Assembly (NCBI GenBank): GCA_963726255.1
Contig: CAVSBL010000002.1
Coordinates: 1,600,001-1,664,000 of the forward strand
From: Candidatus Bathyarchaeota archaeon
Lineage (GTDB): Archaea; Thermoproteota; Bathyarchaeia; 40CM-2-53-6
Length of the DNA stretch: 64,000 nt
Direction: 5' to 3'
The position numbers and the translations under genes were made by a program. Each line of letters starts with the position of its first letter. Positions within the stretch are counted from its first letter, which is position 1. The notes below the pieces were generated by a model. That model saw nothing but the letters and a program-made list of their open reading frames with translations. It did no database searches and was not told where the DNA came from. Shown here one piece after another: positions 36,059 through 44,149 of the stretch.

Positions 36059-36610
36059 TTATTGCTTCGCGTGCCATTCAATCTCTCGCTTACTCTCCCT
36101 GTGATTTGCTAACCGAGCCATTACGAAGAGCAGGTCTGAGAGGCGATTCATATACGGGAACAATTGTTCGTTTACCGGCTCTGCCCTGCTGAGGGCAATG
36201 ACTCGTCTCTCTGCACGTCTGGCTACCGTTCGCGCATTATGGAGCAATGCCCCTGCCACACCGCCCCCGGGAAGGATGAATGCCGTTAGCGGCTGCAGTT
36301 CGGCTTCAAATCTGTCGATTGTATTTTCCATTCCAATGACCTTCTCCTTCGAAATCTTGGGAACGTTGCGCTGCTGATGCTCCGCTGTGGAAGCCAAATC
36401 GGCCCCCACTACGAATAGATCGTTCTGCAATTCCGATAAGAGATCATCGAGTTCGCGGTCGTGTATAAATGCCCTTGCGATTCCAAGGACTGAATTAAGT
36501 TCGTCCACGCTCCCGTAGGCATCAACACGCAAGGAGTCCTTGGGAACCCTAGCCCCGCCAACGAGACCAGTCTCACCTTTGTCGCCGGTTCGCGTGTATA
36601 TCTTTGCCAA
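36059..36610 (-). CDS. pduO: PduO-type ATP:cob(I)alamin adenosyltransferase
   Basis: KIYTRTGDKGET, YGSVDELNS, FILPGG, RTVARRAER and NRLSDLLF motifs; TTG start at 36610. Confidence 0.93.
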   Translation of the reverse strand: MAKIYTRTGDKGETGLVGGARVPKDSLRVDAYGSVDELNSVLGIARAFIHDRELDDLLSELQNDLFVVGADLASTAEHQQRNVPKISKEKVIGMENTIDRFEAELQPLTAFILPGGGVAGALLHNARTVARRAERRVIALSRAEPVNEQLFPYMNRLSDLLFVMARLANHRESKREIEWHAKQ

Positions 36611-36686
36611 TTTCGAGTACTCGCCATTAAAAGGGGCAGGACAGCAATTTAGGGGCGTTGGTGCGCACCGGCTGAGGAGAGTCGAA

Positions 36687-37559
36687 TTGAAGATAGGCGT
36701 ACTCTTGGACGAGCCTGAGATCATCCCTGGATTTGATTACACATTCTATGAGGTGAAGCCATCGAGCGGCAGAATAAATCAGCCTCTTCCGAAAGCGTGG
36801 AACGTCGTGAATTGCTTCGCCGATAACACGATCACTCAAACTAAACCTGAGCTTGTAGCCACATCGAAGGGAGAGCGAGCAGCGAGGGGGACCCCCAAGC
36901 ACTTTCTATGGGATTGGATTTGCCCCTCCCGCGCTGAATATCGCGATTACTGTTTGAAAGTGATTCAAGATGTCGCACGCCACGAAATTGATGGAATTCG
37001 TCTGGATAGTGTGTGCTTCCCAAGGGAAAACTACTGTGACTGCCCCAATTGCACAGACCTGAGTAGAGAAAGCGACATGGATTTCATAGAATGGCGATCT
37101 AGTCAAATCGAGTCTTTCATTCGCACCGTGCGGGAGAGCATCACATGCAGTCTGGGTCTAACGTTGGAACCCGACCCATGCTATGGAAAAGAAAGATTCG
37201 GCTTGGACCTAGAGAAAATATCGGAATATGTCGACTTCCTTTCCACACCGCTCTACATGGACTACTCGATTGTCTATTGGCTGGACATAATCGCAAACTG
37301 TTTTCGACGCAAGATATCGAAGCCTTACTTCATTGAACTCTACGCAGGGCATCCAAGAGCACCCACAAAACATCTCGTATCCGCATTGGCTGTGGCTTCC
37401 GGGTTCGCTGACTGCGTCGTTCTCTCGACGTATGAGGCGAAAATCGCCAAGGACCTTCAACGGGAGATGATGCAGAACAAAGAAGTCACGACGTTCTTCG
37501 AAGAGCGGGAATGTGCCGCCATGTTGGAGGTTCTGAATCGATGGCGGGAAATTCTCTGA
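36687..37559 (+). CDS. hypothetical glycoside-hydrolase-like TIM-barrel protein with a Cys cluster
   Basis: WICPS, DGIRLDSV and YCDCPNC motifs; TTG 36687 after GAGGAGAG. Confidence 0.6.
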   Translation: MKIGVLLDEPEIIPGFDYTFYEVKPSSGRINQPLPKAWNVVNCFADNTITQTKPELVATSKGERAARGTPKHFLWDWICPSRAEYRDYCLKVIQDVARHEIDGIRLDSVCFPRENYCDCPNCTDLSRESDMDFIEWRSSQIESFIRTVRESITCSLGLTLEPDPCYGKERFGLDLEKISEYVDFLSTPLYMDYSIVYWLDIIANCFRRKISKPYFIELYAGHPRAPTKHLVSALAVASGFADCVVLSTYEAKIAKDLQREMMQNKEVTTFFEERECAAMLEVLNRWREIL

Positions 37560-37606
37560 TGGTATTACTGCTTGTTGGTTCAACGCACATTTTTGTACGC
37601 TGTAGC

Positions 37607-37614
37607 TTTAAATA
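37607..37614 (+). promoter_or_regulatory. TATA box (TTTAAATA) of the trp operon
   Basis: Consensus archaeal TATA box 58 nt upstream of ATG 37665. Confidence 0.7.
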
Positions 37615-37664
37615 AAGTAGTGTTGTGAAGTATGAAGCATCACGTCACTGCAGAGGAAGCATAA

Positions 37665-37721
37665 ATGGGGTATAGCCTTTGGGCGGCAGGCCCAACAACT
37701 AACGGCGCAAACAGAGCATAG
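37665..37721 (+). other. zero-frame leader ORF MGYSLWAAGPTTNGANRA with a CTT-TGG candidate +1 shift site at 37677-37682
   Basis: ATG preceded by GAGGA (37653-37657); single Trp codon; the trpE frame is +1 and open from 37636. Confidence 0.55.
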
Positions 37722-39072
37722 GCTGAAGCTTCAGAAGTTTCGGTACTCGACGAACCCCCTGCAAACTTTTCTTGCGCTCAGCAATCAAAGCGAATACTGT
37801 TATCTGCTCGAATCTGCTGAAGGCCCAAGAAAACTCGCGCAGTATTCTTTCATTGGGTTCTCCCCTGAAAAAACCGTCGAGGTGAAGGATGGCCGTTATA
37901 CGGAGACAATCTCCCGAGGAGAATCCACGACAGTTCAAACAGACGATCCATATTTGCCGCTTCGGAAAATACTGGCTGAGAATTTCACAAGATATCATGG
38001 GTTCAGATTCGTAGGTGGCCTAGTGGGCTACTTCTCCTACGATGCAATTCGCTATTTGGAATCTTTACCCAGTAGAGCCCGCGATGACCTTAGACTTCCG
38101 GACTTCGAGTTTGGAGCCTACGACGATGGAATCGTATTCGATCACTTGGCAGGTCAAGCCTACTATTACTGGTACAAGAATAATCGGTTGAGAGAGATTG
38201 AACGGCTTCTGGCCTACAAAACAACGCCAACGACTCTGATTGTTGAGAACCCGCGAACAAACTTAAAGCGAGAGCACTTTGAATCGATGGTGGGCGAGGC
38301 TAAGCGTTACATTAGAGCCGGCGATATATTTCAGGTCGTACTCTCAAAACGTTTTGAATTTGCGTTCAAGGGCGACCTTCTCAATTTCTACAAAGTATTG
38401 CGGGAGATCAACCCCTCGCCGTACATGTATTACCTGAAAATGAAAGACCGTGCGATAGTGGGCTCAAGCCCCGAGATGCTCGGTAGAGTTGACAAAGGTC
38501 GTGCAGAAACCTTTCCAATAGCCGGCACGCGCCCTGTCGGCAAGAACGATAGAGAAGACCAACGCTTGGCTGATGAACTACTGAAGGACCCGAAAGAACA
38601 AGCCGAACACATTATGCTCATCGACCTAGCAAGAAACGATCTTGGAAAAGTCTGTCAGTTCGGAACGATTGAAGTCCCGGACTTCATGACCGTCCAGAAA
38701 TACAGTCACGTCCAACACATAGTCTCAAGAGTTTTAGGCCAACTGCGGCCCGATTGCGACGCGCTGGACAGTTTCAAAGGAATCTTTCCAGCCGGCACAG
38801 TCTCCGGAGCGCCGAAGAAGAGAGCGATGGAAATTATCGAGGAGTTGGAACCGTCTCGCAGAGGACCATACGCTGGTGCAGCCGGCTATTTCTCGTACAA
38901 CGGCAACTCAGATTTCGCAATTACCATCAGGACCCTAGTCGCCGATGGAAACAAGGCCTACGTGCAGGCCGGGGCAGGGATCGTCGCAGACTCTCAACCG
39001 ACACGAGAATGGTTCGAAACAGAACACAAGGCCAAAGCACTCATTCACGCCTTGAAAGTTAGTGGAATCTGA
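37665..39072 (+). CDS. trpE: anthranilate synthase component I (needs a +1 shift or a non-canonical start)
   Basis: YLLESAEG...YSFIG (37801-37857) is in frame with the track ORF but upstream of its GTG; also GDIFQVVLS, NPSPYM, IAGTR, EHIMLIDLARND and FPAGTVSGAPK. Confidence 0.95.
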
Positions 39073-39073
39073 A

Positions 39074-39655
39074 ATGAAGGTATTGGTCATAGATAATTTC
39101 GACTCGTTCGTATATAACCTCGCCCAATATGTTGGACAATTAGGAGCCGAACCTGTCGTCTACCGAAACAACCAAGTCACATTGCGTGAAGTCGAACAAT
39201 TGGAACCAGACAGGATAATCATCTCGCCAGGCCCCGGCCGACCTGATGATCGCAAATACTTCGGAATTTGCTCAGACATCATAAAGAAATTCGGCCCACG
39301 CGTGCCAACTCTTGGAGTATGCTTGGGGCATCAAGGTATTGCGTATACTTTCGGCGGGTCGATAGTGCCCGCGAAACAGCTCATGCATGGAAAGACTAGT
39401 TTGATCGAGCATGAAAACAATGGGTTGTTCAAAGATGTTGAAAACCCTCTGCGCGCAACAAGATACCATTCACTTGTTTGCTCAAGGAAGAATTTTCCGA
39501 AGTGCCTAGAAGAAACCGCAACCTCAACTGACGACGGCGAGATAATGGGATTGAGACATCGAGAGCATCCCATTTATGGCGTCCAGTTCCACCCCGAATC
39601 CATCTTGACTTCTGAAGGCCTAAAGATCATGAAGAATTTCCTGGACGGACCCTGA
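39074..39655 (+). CDS. trpG: anthranilate synthase component II (glutamine amidotransferase)
   Basis: IDNFDSFVYNL, SPGPG, GVCLGHQ, RYHSL and QFHPES motifs. Confidence 0.96.
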   Translation: MKVLVIDNFDSFVYNLAQYVGQLGAEPVVYRNNQVTLREVEQLEPDRIIISPGPGRPDDRKYFGICSDIIKKFGPRVPTLGVCLGHQGIAYTFGGSIVPAKQLMHGKTSLIEHENNGLFKDVENPLRATRYHSLVCSRKNFPKCLEETATSTDDGEIMGLRHREHPIYGVQFHPESILTSEGLKIMKNFLDGP

Positions 39656-39657
39656 GA

Positions 39658-40719
39658 TTGATTAGAGAAGCCATTCAACTGTTAGTGGACCGGAAGGACT
39701 TGCCCTTCGAACTCGCGCAGCAATCAATGCGAGAGATTATGGTGGGAGAAGCAACACCCTCTCAGATCGGTGCGTTCCTAACATCGCTTCGGATGAAGGG
39801 GGAAACTGTTGAAGAAATCACTGCCCTCGCTATGGTAATGCGTGATAATGCCGTTCGAATAAACCCGCATGTGAGCGGAAGGACGGTTGACACTTGTGGG
39901 ACAGGGGGAGACCGGTTGAAAACATTCAACGTGAGTACCGCAGCTGCCCTTGTCGCAGCCGGTGCGGGCGTAGCTGTTGCAAAGCACGGAAACCGTTCGG
40001 TCACCAGTAAATGCGGCAGCGCAGACGTTTTGGAAGCGATTGGGGTCAATCTGAACGTTCCACCCTTAACGGTTCAGAGAGCAATAGAACAGGTAGGGAT
40101 TGGTTTCATGTTCGCGCCCGCATTCCACCCGGCAATGAAGAATGCTATTGTTCCACGACGGGAGATAGGGGTTCGAACGGTTTTCAATATCCTCGGCCCA
40201 CTCACAAACCCTGCCAACGCGAGTGCGCAAGTCCTAGGAGTCTACGACCCAAAGCTTGTTGAGCCCATGGCACAGGTGTTGCAGAAACTCGGTACCGAAG
40301 AAGCCATGGTAGTCCACGGCGTCGAAGGCCTGGACGAAATATCAACCATAGGCAAAACTAAGCTTGCATGGTTGAAAGACGGACAGACCACGAGCAGAGA
40401 AATCACCCCGCAAGACCTGAACCTCAAGCAAGCTCGACCCAACGAAATTTCCGGCTTTGACATCAACCAAAACGCCAAGCTGCTCGTTCACATAATCAAT
40501 GGCAGCGAGGATAGGCTCTCGACAAGGCTTCAGATGGTTCTTGCAAACGCCGCAGCTGCAATCGTGGTTGGAGGAAAAGCACACGACTTAGCAACTGGTG
40601 TGGAAGTCGGCCGCGAGGCCATTGCAAGTGGAAGGGCGTACGAGAAGCTGAAGCAGCTGATCGAAATCACGAACGGCGACGAGTCCAAACTTGAAAGGAT
40701 AGAATCACAAAATGCCTGA
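39658..40719 (+). CDS. trpD: anthranilate phosphoribosyltransferase
   Basis: DTCGTGGD, FNVST, KHGNRS and RTVFNILGPLTNP motifs. Confidence 0.97.
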   Translation: MIREAIQLLVDRKDLPFELAQQSMREIMVGEATPSQIGAFLTSLRMKGETVEEITALAMVMRDNAVRINPHVSGRTVDTCGTGGDRLKTFNVSTAAALVAAGAGVAVAKHGNRSVTSKCGSADVLEAIGVNLNVPPLTVQRAIEQVGIGFMFAPAFHPAMKNAIVPRREIGVRTVFNILGPLTNPANASAQVLGVYDPKLVEPMAQVLQKLGTEEAMVVHGVEGLDEISTIGKTKLAWLKDGQTTSREITPQDLNLKQARPNEISGFDINQNAKLLVHIINGSEDRLSTRLQMVLANAAAAIVVGGKAHDLATGVEVGREAIASGRAYEKLKQLIEITNGDESKLERIESQNA

Positions 40720-41485
40720 CATCCTAAGCAAATTAGTTGAAGATGCCAAAAGAAGGATCAGCAGTGGATACTACGAGATTGAAGAGACTACAAGACACCA
40801 ACCCATTAGCCTCACCCGCGCACTAAATTCAGCTCACAACAATGCCATAATCGCAGAGATCAAACCCATTTCACCCGCGCTAGGCCCCCTACGTCCAAAC
40901 ATTGACCCAGTCGATGCAGCCATCAAGCTAGCCAGAGGCGGCGCGGTAGCCTTATCGGTTCTAACTGAACCCGACAACTTTGGCGGCAAAATAGATTACT
41001 TGAGAAGAATCAGAGAGAAGGTGGACCTTCCCCTCCTTATGAAGGACATAATCGTTCACAAAGCACAGATTCAGGCTGGCAGGGAATCTGGCGCCGACTG
41101 TGTACTCCTCATAGAATCAGTATTCTCAGCACACCACGCGCCCCTTGAAAGTCTAATTCAATACGCACACCAGAACCAACTGGAAGTTCTCCTAGAAGTT
41201 CACAGCGAAGAAGAGCTGGAAAGGGCTCTGGTAAGTGAGGCGGACATCATTGGTGTCAACAACAGAAACCTCGCGACCCTCGAAACCGACCTCAACACGA
41301 CTGCACGACTTCTCAACAGAGTTGATGAAAAGTGTGGAAAGGCGCTCATAAGCGAGAGCGGTTTTGAAAACGCAAGGGACATACGCAAGTTGAAGTCAAG
41401 GCCAGTGGATGGTTTTCTGATAGGCTCTTCAATTATGCTCTCAGAGGACCTGGAACGTAAGGTCCGGGAGTTCGTACTTGCCTAA
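40712..41485 (+). CDS. trpC: indole-3-glycerol-phosphate synthase
   Basis: IIAEIKPISP, LSVLTE, LMKD, GVNNRNL and ISESG motifs. Confidence 0.96.
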   Translation: MPDILSKLVEDAKRRISSGYYEIEETTRHQPISLTRALNSAHNNAIIAEIKPISPALGPLRPNIDPVDAAIKLARGGAVALSVLTEPDNFGGKIDYLRRIREKVDLPLLMKDIIVHKAQIQAGRESGADCVLLIESVFSAHHAPLESLIQYAHQNQLEVLLEVHSEEELERALVSEADIIGVNNRNLATLETDLNTTARLLNRVDEKCGKALISESGFENARDIRKLKSRPVDGFLIGSSIMLSEDLERKVREFVLA

Positions 41486-41496
41486 GGAAGACGACA

Positions 41497-42141
41497 ATGC
41501 GAGTCAAAATCTGTGGCTTGATGCGACCGAAGGATGTGAGGTTTGCTTTGGATAGCGGCGCAGATGCCGTCGGTGTCGTTGTAGCCAGCCCATCTTCCCG
41601 AAGAAACTTACCATTGAACCAAGCACGAAAGTTGATGAGAACGGTTCCAATCTTCGCCATGAAGGTGGTGGTCACCTCCGCAAATGATGGGAAAATCCTG
41701 CTCAGGATTTGCTCCAGTCTTAGGCCTGACGCACTACAGCTCCATCAACACCAGCGGGAGCTAGTACGATCGATTAGGCGAAAACATCCTGAAACCAAGC
41801 TCATTCTTGCCACAGCGATTAGTGGCCCTTCTGGATTGCGGCAGGCATGTATGGCATCGGGGTATTCAGATGCTGTTTTGGCAGACTCACCCAACCATGA
41901 CGGGATGGGTGGCACAGGCCGAACTCATGACTGGAACCTCACGGCAACTCTTCGCGACAGGATATACCCTCATCCCTTAATCCTGGCGGGGGGGCTAACT
42001 CCAAGCAATGTTCAAACGGCCATCAAAAAGGTCAGGCCATTCGCGGTAGATGTTTCAAGCGGCGTGGAGAAGACAGTGGGAGTTAAGGACCCACGTAAAA
42101 TTCGGGACTTCATAATGAGAGCAAAGGAGGACATGAATTGA
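41497..42141 (+). CDS. trpF: phosphoribosylanthranilate isomerase
   Basis: VKICG, QLH, GGTG, LAGGL and VDVSSGVE motifs. Confidence 0.96.
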
Positions 42142-43337
42142 CACAGGAACATTCGCACGTTGTCGATGGCAAGTTCGGGAAGTATGGCGGCCGCTTCGTT
42201 CCGGAGACGCTAATGGGTGCTCTCATCGAGCTGGAAAAGGAATATACACGGCTGAAGAACGACCCGGAATTCAAATCTCAACTTTCTTATCTTCTCAAAG
42301 AATTCGCAGGGCGTCCTACACCCCTTTACTACGCTGCGAACTTGACCCGAAAAGCCGGCGGCGCGAAGATATACATCAAACGTGAAGACTTGGCGCACGG
42401 CGGCGCACACAAGATCAACAACACGATTGGGCAGGCACTTCTCGCGAAACGAATGGGAAGAAACCGGGTCATAGCGGAAACTGGCGCTGGTCAGCACGGC
42501 GTTGCAAGCGCCATAGCGTGCGCGGCGCTAGGCCTCAAGTGCGAGGTCTACATGGGTTCCGAAGATGTGGAACGACAGAAACTAAACGTCTTCCGCATGA
42601 ATCTTCTAGGAACTAAGGTCCATTCGGTTCACTCAGGATCGAGGACGCTCAAGGATGCGATAAACGAAACCTTCCGAGATTGGGTATCGAACGTTGAGAA
42701 CACTTACTATCTGCTTGGTTCAGTAGTGGGCCCCCACCCATACCCTACCTTAGTAAGAGATTTTCAGAGCGTTATCGGCCTAGAGATCAAAGAGCAGATT
42801 CTGCAGAAGGAAGGACGCCTGCCGGATGCGATAGTTGCCTGCGTGGGCGGGGGAAGCAACTCGATGGGCGCGTTCTATCCTTTCATTGAAGACACGCAAG
42901 TGGCATTGCATGGTGTGGAAGCCGGCGGCCTAGGCCTTGCGTCTGGAAAACACGCTGCAACATTGTGCGCTGGACAGGAAGGCGTCTTTCACGGAATGCT
43001 TACCTACATCCTTCAGGATGAGGACGGTCAAATCCAGTCAACACACAGCATCTCAGCCGGCCTAGACTACCCAGGAGTTGGCCCAGAACATGCATACCTG
43101 AAGGCTACCGGACGTGCTCAATACACTTCGGCAACGGATCAACAAGCCGTGGAAGCCTTCATGGAACTAAGTCGGCTTGAAGGCATCATACCAGCTCTCG
43201 AATCCGCACACGCCGTACATTACGCAACGATTTTGGCGTCGAAAATGAAGCAAGACCAGCTTGTAGTGATCAACCTCTCGGGACGCGGAGATAAGGACGT
43301 TAATGTTGTCGCCAAAAATCTGGGCGTTAAGATATGA
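42138..43337 (+). CDS. trpB: tryptophan synthase beta chain
   Basis: [38 protein letters not shown] and NLSGRGDKD motifs. Confidence 0.98.
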
Positions 43338-44149
43338 CGAGAATCTCAGAGTTATTCGCTCAATTGAAGGAGAGTGGCGAAGGTGCACTCATAGCCTACC
43401 TGACAGTAGGATACCCAAACCTTAGACAAACCCCTCGCCTAATCGGAGCACTGATCAAAGGTGGGGCAGACATCATCGAACTTGGAATCCCATTCTCGGA
43501 TCCGATCGCGGATGGGCCAACGATTCAGAACGCTACCACGCGTTCCTTGGAGAGCGGCGTTAGGCCCCTCGACGCTTTAGAGATAGCTCGAACAGTCCAC
43601 GAGAAATACGACACGCCCCTTGTTCTAATGAGCTACTTCAACCCCATATACCGAGTTGGATTACAGAAATTTCTGACCTTGACAAAGAATTCCGGGATAT
43701 CGGGAATTATTGTTCCTGACCTCCCGGTAGAAGAATCAAAAGATTACAAGAATGAATGCGTTTCAACCGACATCGACACCATCTTCTTGGCATCGCCCTC
43801 CACTCATCCGGACAGGCTTAAGCAGATTCTGGCTCAGACCTCGGGTTACCTCTACCTGATTTCACTATACGGTGTCACGGGTGTCCGGTCGTCAGTTGCT
43901 GAATCAGCTCTGACTCTGATCAGGAAATACCGCGGTGCAATGGCTGGTTCCGTCCCCCTCGCAGTGGGGTTTGGAATCTCTACACCCGACCACGTTAGAG
44001 CAATGATCCATGCCGGAGCAGATGGTGCGATCGTCGGCAGCGCATTCATTGAGATAATCAGGAAGAACCAGCGGAACCCGATTCATGCAGCCAAAAAATT
44101 GGAGAACATGACCAAGGCCATGAAAAAAGCAACTTTAGGATCCAAATGA
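43334..44149 (+). CDS. trpA: tryptophan synthase alpha chain
   Basis: [28 protein letters not shown] and ADGAIVGSA motifs. Confidence 0.98.

Follow-up and report, generated by a model that had tools for sequence, protein, structure and literature searches.

The trpE frame opens far upstream of its first canonical start codon

The 64,000-nucleotide (nt) stretch of contig CAVSBL010000002.1 analysed here, referred to as the window, carries on its forward strand a tryptophan (Trp) biosynthesis operon whose first gene, trpE, encodes anthranilate synthase component I and appears to depend on a +1 frameshift close to its beginning. Open reading frame (ORF) listing and translation show the trpE frame to be open over 37636-39072 (478 codons from stop to stop, the stop itself being 39070-39072). 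The first ATG, GTG or TTG in this frame is a GTG at 37882, none occurring across 37636-37881, and the LLES (37804-37815) and YSFIG (37843-37857) motifs are both encoded 5' of it. In Pfam searches with the stop-to-stop frame, Anth_synt_I_N (PF04715) covers residues 40-176 and Chorismate_bind (PF00425) residues 212-465; as the former begins at residue 40, the N-terminal domain sets in about 43 codons upstream of the first canonical start. An earlier sequence-only reading of the window had described an open trpE frame with conserved motifs ahead of its first canonical start, and the ORFs and their translation confirm this description.

A short leader ORF (37665-37721, forward strand, 18 codons, MGYSLWAAGPTTNGANRA) overlaps the beginning of trpE. 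Its ATG at 37665 is offset from the trpE frame by one base and is preceded, at a distance of 8 nt, by a Shine-Dalgarno (SD) core, GAGG, at 37653-37656. The leader reads ATG GGG TAT AGC CTT TGG and ends with TAG at 37719-37721. UGG is the sole codon for Trp, and the leader contains a single one, TGG at 37680-37682, preceded by CTT at 37677-37679. Within the putative shift site CTT_TGG_G (37677-37683, forward strand), CUU would occupy the ribosomal P site and UGG the A site; after a +1 slip the corresponding codons would be UUU (37678-37680) and GGG (37681-37683). The trpE coding sequence in the +1 frame accordingly covers 37681-39072 on the forward strand, as judged from the translation and both Pfam domains, and the predicted product is MGYSL followed by GRQAQQ..., 468 residues in all. 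The SD-led ATG, the single-Trp leader ending at 37721 and the 468-residue slip product had all been read from the letters beforehand, and each of these statements about the sequence was found to be correct.

The rest of the operon occupies 39062-44149 on the same strand and was assigned from ORFs and Pfam matches: trpG (39062-39655; GATase), trpD (39658-40719; Glycos_transf_3), trpC (40712-41485; IGPS), trpF (41497-42141; PRAI), trpB (42138-43337; PALP) and trpA (43334-44149; Trp_syntA). Because stops and starts overlap or abut throughout trpE-GDCFBA, translational coupling of trpGDCFBA to trpE is likely.

The cassette recurs across the window's class and in distant archaeal groups

For comparison with other genomes we defined the cassette as a start codon, a GRGG element complementary to the anti-SD sequence, and then N-TT-TGG in the leader frame over TTT-GGN in the trpE frame. 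Among close relatives (41 genomes), all 26 full-length trpE loci have the out-of-frame start, 25 as ATG and one as TTG. The sample of the window's class comprised 151 genomes, 57 of them with trpE at E ≤ 1e-60; the 66 loci compared are made up of the 26 relatives and 40 of the 46 new matches. The cassette is present in 62 of the 66, in the form [ATG/GTG/TTG]-R-G-G/T-N-A-T-N-N-N-N-T-T-T-G-G and with the +1 frame open into trpE. The class is probably Bathyarchaeia; the closest homologues at NCBI are named "Candidatus Bathyarchaeia archaeon", and the holders are freshwater-sediment and wetland metagenomes. All four class loci without the cassette have ordinary in-frame starts, two of them (L124 and L130) directly at the enzyme core (MKFKKISF...).

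The rest of the phylum was represented by 251 genomes, 136 of them with trpE, from which 40 5' regions were picked by family; families f42, f43, f44, f48, f51 and f66 lie outside the phylum sample, and L034 and L187, being the same record, were counted once. In 33 of these 40 loci the leader N-TT-TGG overlaps TTT-GGN, and every locus has the cassette in families f34 (10/10), f47 (9/9) and f57 (9/9). Normal starts were found in three loci of f38, two of f49, one of f58 and in L190. Family f34 is Nitrosopumilaceae, matching at 100% a protein of Nitrosopumilus sp. K4 that is annotated from a GTG as MDVFG.... A longer possible leader with two Trp codons (MPRLWGMCLWQ*) was seen in one f47 locus, L193; the shorter MCLW is common to the other six loci of its genus. 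The automatic classifier missed four loci (L213, L158, L161 and L035), which were scored by eye.

A related arrangement was reached in Methanobacteria via L057. There, 39 of the 50 matches examined show SD-ATG-N6-[AGT/TGT]-GAA-T[G/A]Y-TTT-TGG, corresponding to a leader M-x-x-[SC]-E-[CY]-F-W that is conserved as a peptide too, and the 14-nt block GTGAAT[GA][TC]TTTTGG is invariant in the 28 aligned loci (within L154-L183 and L224-L235). Of the 11 exceptions, eight have a TrpE of another, longer type. One locus labelled 'Nitrososphaera sp.' (L035) has the eight-codon layout of Methanobacteria (MSKSDCFW), a likeness that points to common descent or else to a transfer in which cassette and trpE moved together. 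Among the matches listed for a control set of bacterial and other archaeal trpE loci, 0 of 77 have the layout.

Within the window's own genome, the pattern ATGRGGN7TTTGG occurs three times, as often as a control pattern, and only the copy at trpE precedes a long start-less frame. Likewise, in a scan of 1,689 long stop-to-stop frames only trpE joins the motif to a distant first start. These pattern and frame scans gave no convincing case of the cassette at any other gene of this genome.

The leader start is under evident constraint: in 63 aligned loci the triplet is ATG (59), GTG (2) or TTG (2), that is, start codons only. Columns -13 to -9 are G-rich, as expected of an SD, with a spacing of 7-9 nt; the 16S ribosomal RNA (rRNA) of the window's own genome ends in GGATCACCTCCT, and the SD duplex with this tail has a mean energy of -7.0 kcal/mol. 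Beyond the Trp codon the leader is conserved neither in sequence nor in length (7 to 51 codons). On this evidence from sequence, ATG 37665 is the true initiation codon of TrpE. The sequence-only reading had named such a pattern in aligned trpE 5' regions of relatives as support for its proposal, and the alignment shows it, with NTT-TGG conserved beside an out-of-frame start and with inconsistent annotated starts.

UUUGG is invariant and bracketed by natural stops

TTTGG is invariant in 63 of 63 aligned loci. Phenylalanine at the site is encoded by TTT in 62 of 62 loci, as against 502 TTC and 329 TTT elsewhere in the same genes, and in Methanobacteria it is TTT in 28 of 28 compared with 56% TTT elsewhere; the counts are not phylogenetically independent, yet they cover dozens of genera. 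Since the site is never TTC, the T that makes both UGG and UUU appears to be selected beyond the needs of encoding phenylalanine. In the leader frame, the A-site codon is UGG in every cassette (63/63 aligned loci, 33/33 in the other families, 39/39 in Methanobacteria) with no stop and no other rare codon ever in its place. These genes use Trp codons sparingly, at 62 of 15,759 codons. The first base of the P-site codon varies over the 63 loci (C 28, G 22, A 8, T 5).

Natural stop codons delimit the position of the frame change on both sides. A TAG in the trpE frame stands directly 5' of TTT in seven genomes, represented by L191 (f46) and by L195, L196 and L204-L207 (f57); the latter are all six loci of one f57 genus, and the other frame reads ...[CT]TA GTT TGG, as in L191. 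The distance from TGG to the leader stop ranges from 0 to about 45 codons: the stop follows immediately in three loci (L221, L168 and L171) and one codon further on in L127, L192 and six others. With stops both 5' of TTT and after TGG, the frame change is bracketed to UUUGG.

Comparison between genomes demonstrates, at the level of sequence, that a frame change is needed and that it falls at UUUGG; it also shows that the leader start codon is conserved and that an element described below is complementary to the anti-SD. Recoding at CTT_TGG with a Trp codon in the A site, which the sequence-only reading had proposed as a requirement for making TrpE, is strongly supported by the cross-lineage conservation and by the bracketing stops, and some +1 recoding event at UUUGG is very probably required in the window's lineage.

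A transfer RNA (tRNA) for leucine, tRNA-Leu(GAG), is present in the window's own genome. ARAGORN returned seven tRNAs from this genome without its intron option and 35 with it, most of the latter intron-containing or dubious, and the tRNA genes there seem to be heavily interrupted. The genome (G000) consists of contig C2 and four small contigs with a contamination of 9.34%, and the small contigs may not belong to it.

An element complementary to the 16S rRNA tail lies between start and shift site

Conservation spans the region from the SD through column 19 of the alignment and then vanishes into a linker, which is variable in the aligned relatives and connects the cassette to the enzyme core. 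Inside the leader lies an element complementary to the anti-SD, TGGGGT at 37666-37671 on the forward strand (general form G-R-G-G-N-A-U-H), which is a candidate stimulator of the shift. Columns 3-6 read G, R, G, G in 62-63 of 63 loci, and columns 8 and 9 read A and T in 60 and 62 of 63. Columns 2-12 pair with the 16S 3' tail of the window's own genome (GAUCACCUCCU) at a mean of -7.6 kcal/mol, no less strongly than the SD itself and compared with -1.8 for background 11-mers from the same genes, and the element ranks among the top 5% of duplex energies in 42 of 62 loci. The ATGAGGGATC variants form eight pairs with the tail at a spacer of 3 nt to the P-site codon. Equivalent elements reach -7.4 kcal/mol in Nitrosopumilaceae and -7.1 kcal/mol in Methanobacteria. 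Codon choice at these columns departs from usage in the remainder of the genes: column 7 is T in 49% of loci, against 16% GGT elsewhere in the same genes, and ATT is used in 12% against 30%. Judging from duplex energies and codon choice, the constraint on columns 3-10 is likely to reflect pairing with the rRNA tail.

The arrangement is present in independent sequences

A start codon in the wrong frame could also result from an assembly error or a pseudogene, and the frame could be restored without ribosomal slippage, by transcriptional slippage or editing or by reinitiation after the leader stop. The runs GGGG (37667-37670) and TTT are error-prone in principle. In the region from 37660 to 37730, where the sequence-only reading had called for the exclusion of an indel, comparison with assembled contigs revealed none: across 37443-37735 or more, the contigs of three studies and a further one from an RNA library align with 0 gaps, neither gaining nor losing a letter. 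The best-covering contig may be from the window's own assembly sample, and then not independent; the others come from relatives. The RNA-library contig (X20) spans 37443-37735 ungapped and differs from the window at 21 letters; as it comes from a relative and may represent DNA, it is no proof of transcription. Taken with the recurrence of the same arrangement in well over 100 independent genomes, with downstream ORFs intact, the ungapped contigs rule out a sequencing indel.

Slippage of the polymerase fits poorly as well. Runs of three to four bases are too short for it, and the trpE-frame triplet overlapping the leader ATG is TGA in 27 of 63 cassette loci, where the resulting ATGA leaves G runs of three at most. 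Reinitiation would find a suitable geometry in the window, the leader stop (37719-37721) being one base before a CTG at 37723, a start that had been named as a possible refutation of the frameshift. This codon is CTA or TTA in relatives, which rules out reinitiation there, and the position of the leader stop varies, the conserved element being UUUGG instead. We therefore regard restoration of the frame by any of these routes as highly improbable.

RNA structure and attenuation at the leader

A possible hairpin, TTGGGC-GGCAG-GCCCAA (37679-37695, forward strand; arms 37679-37684 and 37690-37695), covers the shift site. The stem, which the sequence-only reading had described as covering the Trp codon, is indeed present in the letters, and it is probably non-functional. 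It is confined to the genus and is without support from covariation: 90.5% of cells pair, a value also reached by 301 of 500 shuffles, and there is one compensatory pair. Furthermore, its 5' arm is the shift site itself and would be melted by a ribosome positioned there. Class-wide, the mean z of fold stability is -0.39, with 5 of 62 loci below -1.64.

Attenuation of the trpL type is not apparent either, the leader having one Trp codon, no terminator or antiterminator and no class-conserved structure. Polarity via the U-rich tract at 37767-37773 had been suggested; no terminator-like site was found in 37450-38000, this tract included, and the suggestion is not sustained. No Rfam family matched the trpE leader.

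In-frame starts and other evidence against a Trp-gated frameshift

Several observations weigh against a frameshift gated by Trp. The cassette has been lost in several lineages and is therefore dispensable. L190 has an ATG in frame (MRTSNPSTSDKP...) and its relative L189 keeps the cassette; losses are also seen in L124, L130, L131 and L136. No conserved downstream stimulatory structure emerged from class-wide folding or from covariation within the genus. At the window's own locus the spacer between the SD-like element and the P-site codon measures 5-6 nt, against 3 nt in the +1 frameshift of prfB. The P-site codon is GUU or AUU in 30 of 63 loci, and the tRNAs decoding these would have a first-position mismatch on UUU. 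ARAGORN recovered no tRNA-Trp in the window's own genome. The stops that pin the shift site occur in other families and not in the window's class. Within that class, G-[IMV]-x-F-G is conserved in the trpE frame, and the columns that vary (4, 7, 10 and 13) fall on third codon positions of that frame, a pattern that could mean that ribosomes are in the trpE frame even before they reach CTT_TGG. Finally, a canonical in-frame start also exists in 20 of 62 class loci as well as in all sampled Nitrosopumilaceae and all cassette-bearing Methanobacteria, often as a GTG three codons before TTT, so that frameshifting is not obligatory in those lineages.

The phase of the variable columns led us to consider a shift immediately after the ATG (AUG-R-GGN) or slippage on RGG. 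Both were set aside, for the window's class as less likely, in view of the stops directly 5' of TTT in seven genomes, the invariant TTT and the anti-SD pairing. In other lineages, the trpE-frame positions that match the conserved columns of the class differ or carry stops.

The in-frame starts lead to an explanation that requires no frameshift at all, namely that TrpE starts at a non-canonical or near-cognate codon, for instance ATA 37672, or at an in-frame GTG or ATG, the SD-led ATG belonging to a competing or occluding upstream ORF. Databases annotate such starts (MDVFG..., MAFG...), and the conserved G-[IMV]-x-F-G with its third-position variation also speaks for them, but 42 of the 62 class cassette loci lack a canonical in-frame start anywhere from the preceding stop to TTT. 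The ATA, which had also been named as a start that could refute the frameshift, is not conserved: its position holds GAC, AAT or GTC in other lineages, or a stop follows. Seven genomes have a stop directly 5' of TTT, and the six f57 loci among them show no canonical in-frame start in about 25-45 codons downstream. Both the SD spacing and the promoter geometry favour the out-of-frame ATG. In Nitrosopumilaceae a TATA-like 8-mer begins at -30/-31 from this ATG in 10 of 10 loci (L197-L200 and L218-L223), which, given the usual distance, predicts a leaderless trpE mRNA starting at the out-of-frame ATG. Occlusion would in addition work in the wrong direction for homeostasis, since ribosomes held up at UGG by a shortage of Trp would block both starts and so reduce TrpE, and the invariance of TTT over TTC would be left unexplained. 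For these reasons we hold translation from an in-frame start without recoding to be rather improbable as an account of the cassette; an in-frame GTG or ATG could, in some lineages, provide basal expression of TrpE beside the frameshift.

The cassette-less lineages also bear on the purpose of the N-terminal extension. As L124, L130 and L190 start at the enzyme core, the extension would exist for the cassette and not for the enzyme; the pair L190 and L189, together with L124, L130, L131 and L136, offers useful natural controls.

A model in which charged tRNA-Trp gates TrpE

The mechanism that we infer is slippage of a tRNA, stimulated by the rRNA tail and dependent on Trp, through which the downstream genes would be controlled as well. 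Ribosomes would initiate at the SD-led ATG 37665 and read M-G-Y-S-L, which places CUU (37677-37679) in the P site and the only UGG of the leader in the A site. If Trp-tRNA arrives promptly, translation would continue in frame to the TAG at 37719, and instead of TrpE only an 18-residue peptide of no use would be made. With Trp-tRNA in short supply, the ribosome would pause and tRNA-Leu on CUU would re-pair one base further on UUU, a slip probably aided by pairing of the 16S tail with the internal GRGG(U) just upstream. GGG would then be read as glycine and translation would enter TrpE (MGYSL-GRQAQ..., 468 residues). Little charged tRNA-Trp would thus mean more slippage, more TrpE and, via coupling, more of the operon. 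The sign of such feedback is right for homeostasis, and because the A-site codon is always Trp and the gene opens the Trp pathway, feedback is the economical reading.

Overall, we favour a programmed +1 frameshift, similar to those of prfB and Ty1, that gates TrpE by the supply of charged tRNA-Trp, and put its probability at roughly 0.6. We also lean, by a little over even odds, towards the broader view that the cassette is an ancient and widespread archaeal Trp homeostat, in which an rRNA-stimulated hungry-codon shift at N-UU_UGG scales the whole trp operon in Bathyarchaeia, Nitrosopumilaceae and Methanobacteria. If true, frameshifting upon amino-acid starvation would here for the first time serve as a metabolite sensor in nature, and Archaea would have their first regulatory +1 frameshift; it would also answer how lineages without the regulators TrpY or Tar control Trp synthesis.

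Promoter motifs and the possibility of constitutive recoding

The promoter region at 37594-37614 (forward strand) contains TGTAC (37594-37598), TGTAG (37601-37605) and a TATA box, TTTAAATA, at 37607-37614. The distance from the archaeal TATA box to the transcript start is roughly fixed, and on this basis the trpE transcript is predicted to start at about 37637, with a 5' untranslated region of about 27 nt. The block from TGTAC to TGTAGCTTTAAATA is near-identical throughout the genus, and TGTAC beside a TATA-like box recurs in other families. Over 37590-37614 the window reads TTTTTGTACGCTGTAGCTTTAAATA, with TGTAC and TGTAG directly 5' of the TATA box; the same block is found in L002-L016, and similar ones in L018, L020, L021, L034, L189 and L190.

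The consensus of the TRP boxes bound by the repressor TrpY is TGTACA. The TGTAC motif could accordingly be the operator of a Trp-responsive repressor, as it resembles the TrpY-bound TRP boxes of Methanothermobacter described in excerpts of PMC6737238. The description of the system as a "repressor-free" Trp sensor is doubtful for this reason: a conserved TGTAC abutting the TATA box leaves room for a repressor. No regulator gene was found next to trpE among its neighbours in the window.

These motifs bring up another possibility, in which the +1 shift at UUUGG is real but constitutive, with an efficiency governed by the SD-like element and the slippery site, and sets a low rate of TrpE synthesis, Trp control being exerted on transcription, for instance by a repressor at TGTAC. 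All comparative evidence for recoding fits such a scheme equally well, and the TGTAC beside the TATA box speaks in its favour. A constitutive shift would have no obvious benefit over an in-frame start, however, and yet three distant groups have retained the cassette; no cassette has an A-site codon other than UGG, and in the window's own genome the cassette occurs at the Trp operon only. We consider constitutive recoding unlikely.

Relation to known regulatory systems

The charging of tRNA-Trp is read through leader-peptide Trp codons both in trpL attenuation and in the anti-TRAP system of Bacillus (rtpA). The trpE cassette resembles these in having a short leader ORF with a Trp codon, here placed before trpE, but it has a single Trp codon and a leader that overlaps trpE, and it would act by changing the reading frame, not by termination or exposure of an SD.

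The gene for release factor 2, prfB, is autoregulated by a +1 frameshift at CUU_UGA_C with an upstream SD-like AGGGGG. In both cases a short 0-frame ORF precedes a main ORF that lies in the +1 frame without a start of its own, and an element complementary to the anti-SD lies a few bases 5' of the site; re-pairing of a P-site CUU with UUU would likewise be common to both, as would negative feedback through an A-site decoder whose level reflects the regulated product (for prfB, excerpts of the recoding review PMC5009743). At trpE, by contrast, the A site holds the sense codon UGG and the sensed species would be charged tRNA-Trp, not a stop codon and a release factor; the shift would take place at codon 5/6, just after initiation, in an archaeal host, and the P-site codon may be CUU, GUU, AUU or UUU. 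The spacer is 3 nt in prfB and about 3 nt in the ATGAGGGATC variants, against the longer one of the window's own locus. With UGG in place of UGA in the A site, the trpE cassette would work like prfB without being a member of the prfB family.

Slippage at a slow sense codon has a precedent in Ty1, where a permanently scarce tRNA-Arg at CUU_AGG_C sets a fixed Gag:Pol ratio (excerpts of PMC5009743). As would be the case at trpE, tRNA-Leu slips +1 from CUU, and the next codon is a glycine codon in both (GGC in Ty1, GGN in trpE). The same excerpts report, citing Gallant, that amino-acid starvation provokes shifts at hungry codons in laboratory work. Such shifting is treated there as an error or laboratory phenomenon, whereas the trpE cassette would be a conserved sensor for the amino acid of its own pathway; that a regulatory frameshift might be triggered by a hungry sense codon specifying the pathway's own end product is discussed only as a possibility (PMC5009743, in the same portion). 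In antizyme, too, the end product of the controlled pathway is reported by how efficiently a regulatory +1 frameshift takes place, but antizyme is eukaryotic, shifts at a stop-codon site (UCC_UGA) and responds to the polyamine product with increased shifting, where at trpE scarcity would raise it (PMC4505036, in part).

Archaeal Trp regulation is known only from TrpY in Methanothermobacter and Tar in Thermococcus, and according to excerpts of PMC6737238 there is little knowledge of it beyond TrpY. Acting with the TRP boxes, TrpY represses transcription of trpEGCFBAD in Methanothermobacter thermautotrophicus, the only Trp-responsive control of an archaeal trp operon to have been described. Methanobacteria also carry the cassette, and TGTAC motifs flank the TATA box of the window, but TrpY acts on transcription and the cassette, if at all, on translation. 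The text of PMC6737238 notes that Crenarchaeota are almost without TrpY and Tar homologues and may use "a third regulator or mechanism". The cassette occurs in lineages to which this remark applies and is a concrete candidate for such a third mechanism of archaeal Trp control in several lineages of the window's phylum. Cultured Nitrosopumilus carry it, and Methanothermobacter, whose class carries it too, is genetically tractable (PMC8609365, in part).

We found no trpE frameshift and no archaeal trp leader in the literature searched, which did not extend to the primary TrpY paper or the 1991 description of the operon. Neither 'trpE' nor 'anthranilate' occurs in the available portion of the recoding review (PMC5009743) or in a survey of prokaryotic frame transitions (PMC3711429). 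Autoregulatory +1 frameshifting as such is already known; what appears to be new is its putative use at a Trp sense codon before trpE, in a form that is widespread and unannotated.

Annotation of trpE and neighbouring genes

Public TrpE entries from these groups start variously, at VAPQ..., MQSRKPKW..., MAFG..., MQTF... or MLES..., or far upstream through the TATA box, and entries of 422-437 residues are without the first strands of the N-terminal domain. In Nitrosopumilaceae the annotation begins at a GTG 4 nt past the out-of-frame ATG (MDVFG...). Gene callers and metabolic reconstructions should handle trpE in these groups as a recoded gene.

The gene 5' of the trp operon in the window (36540-37559, forward strand) encodes a putative glycosyl-hydrolase-like protein with weak matches to DUF4015/GHL10, and a cobalamin adenosyltransferase is encoded on the opposite strand at 36059-36724.

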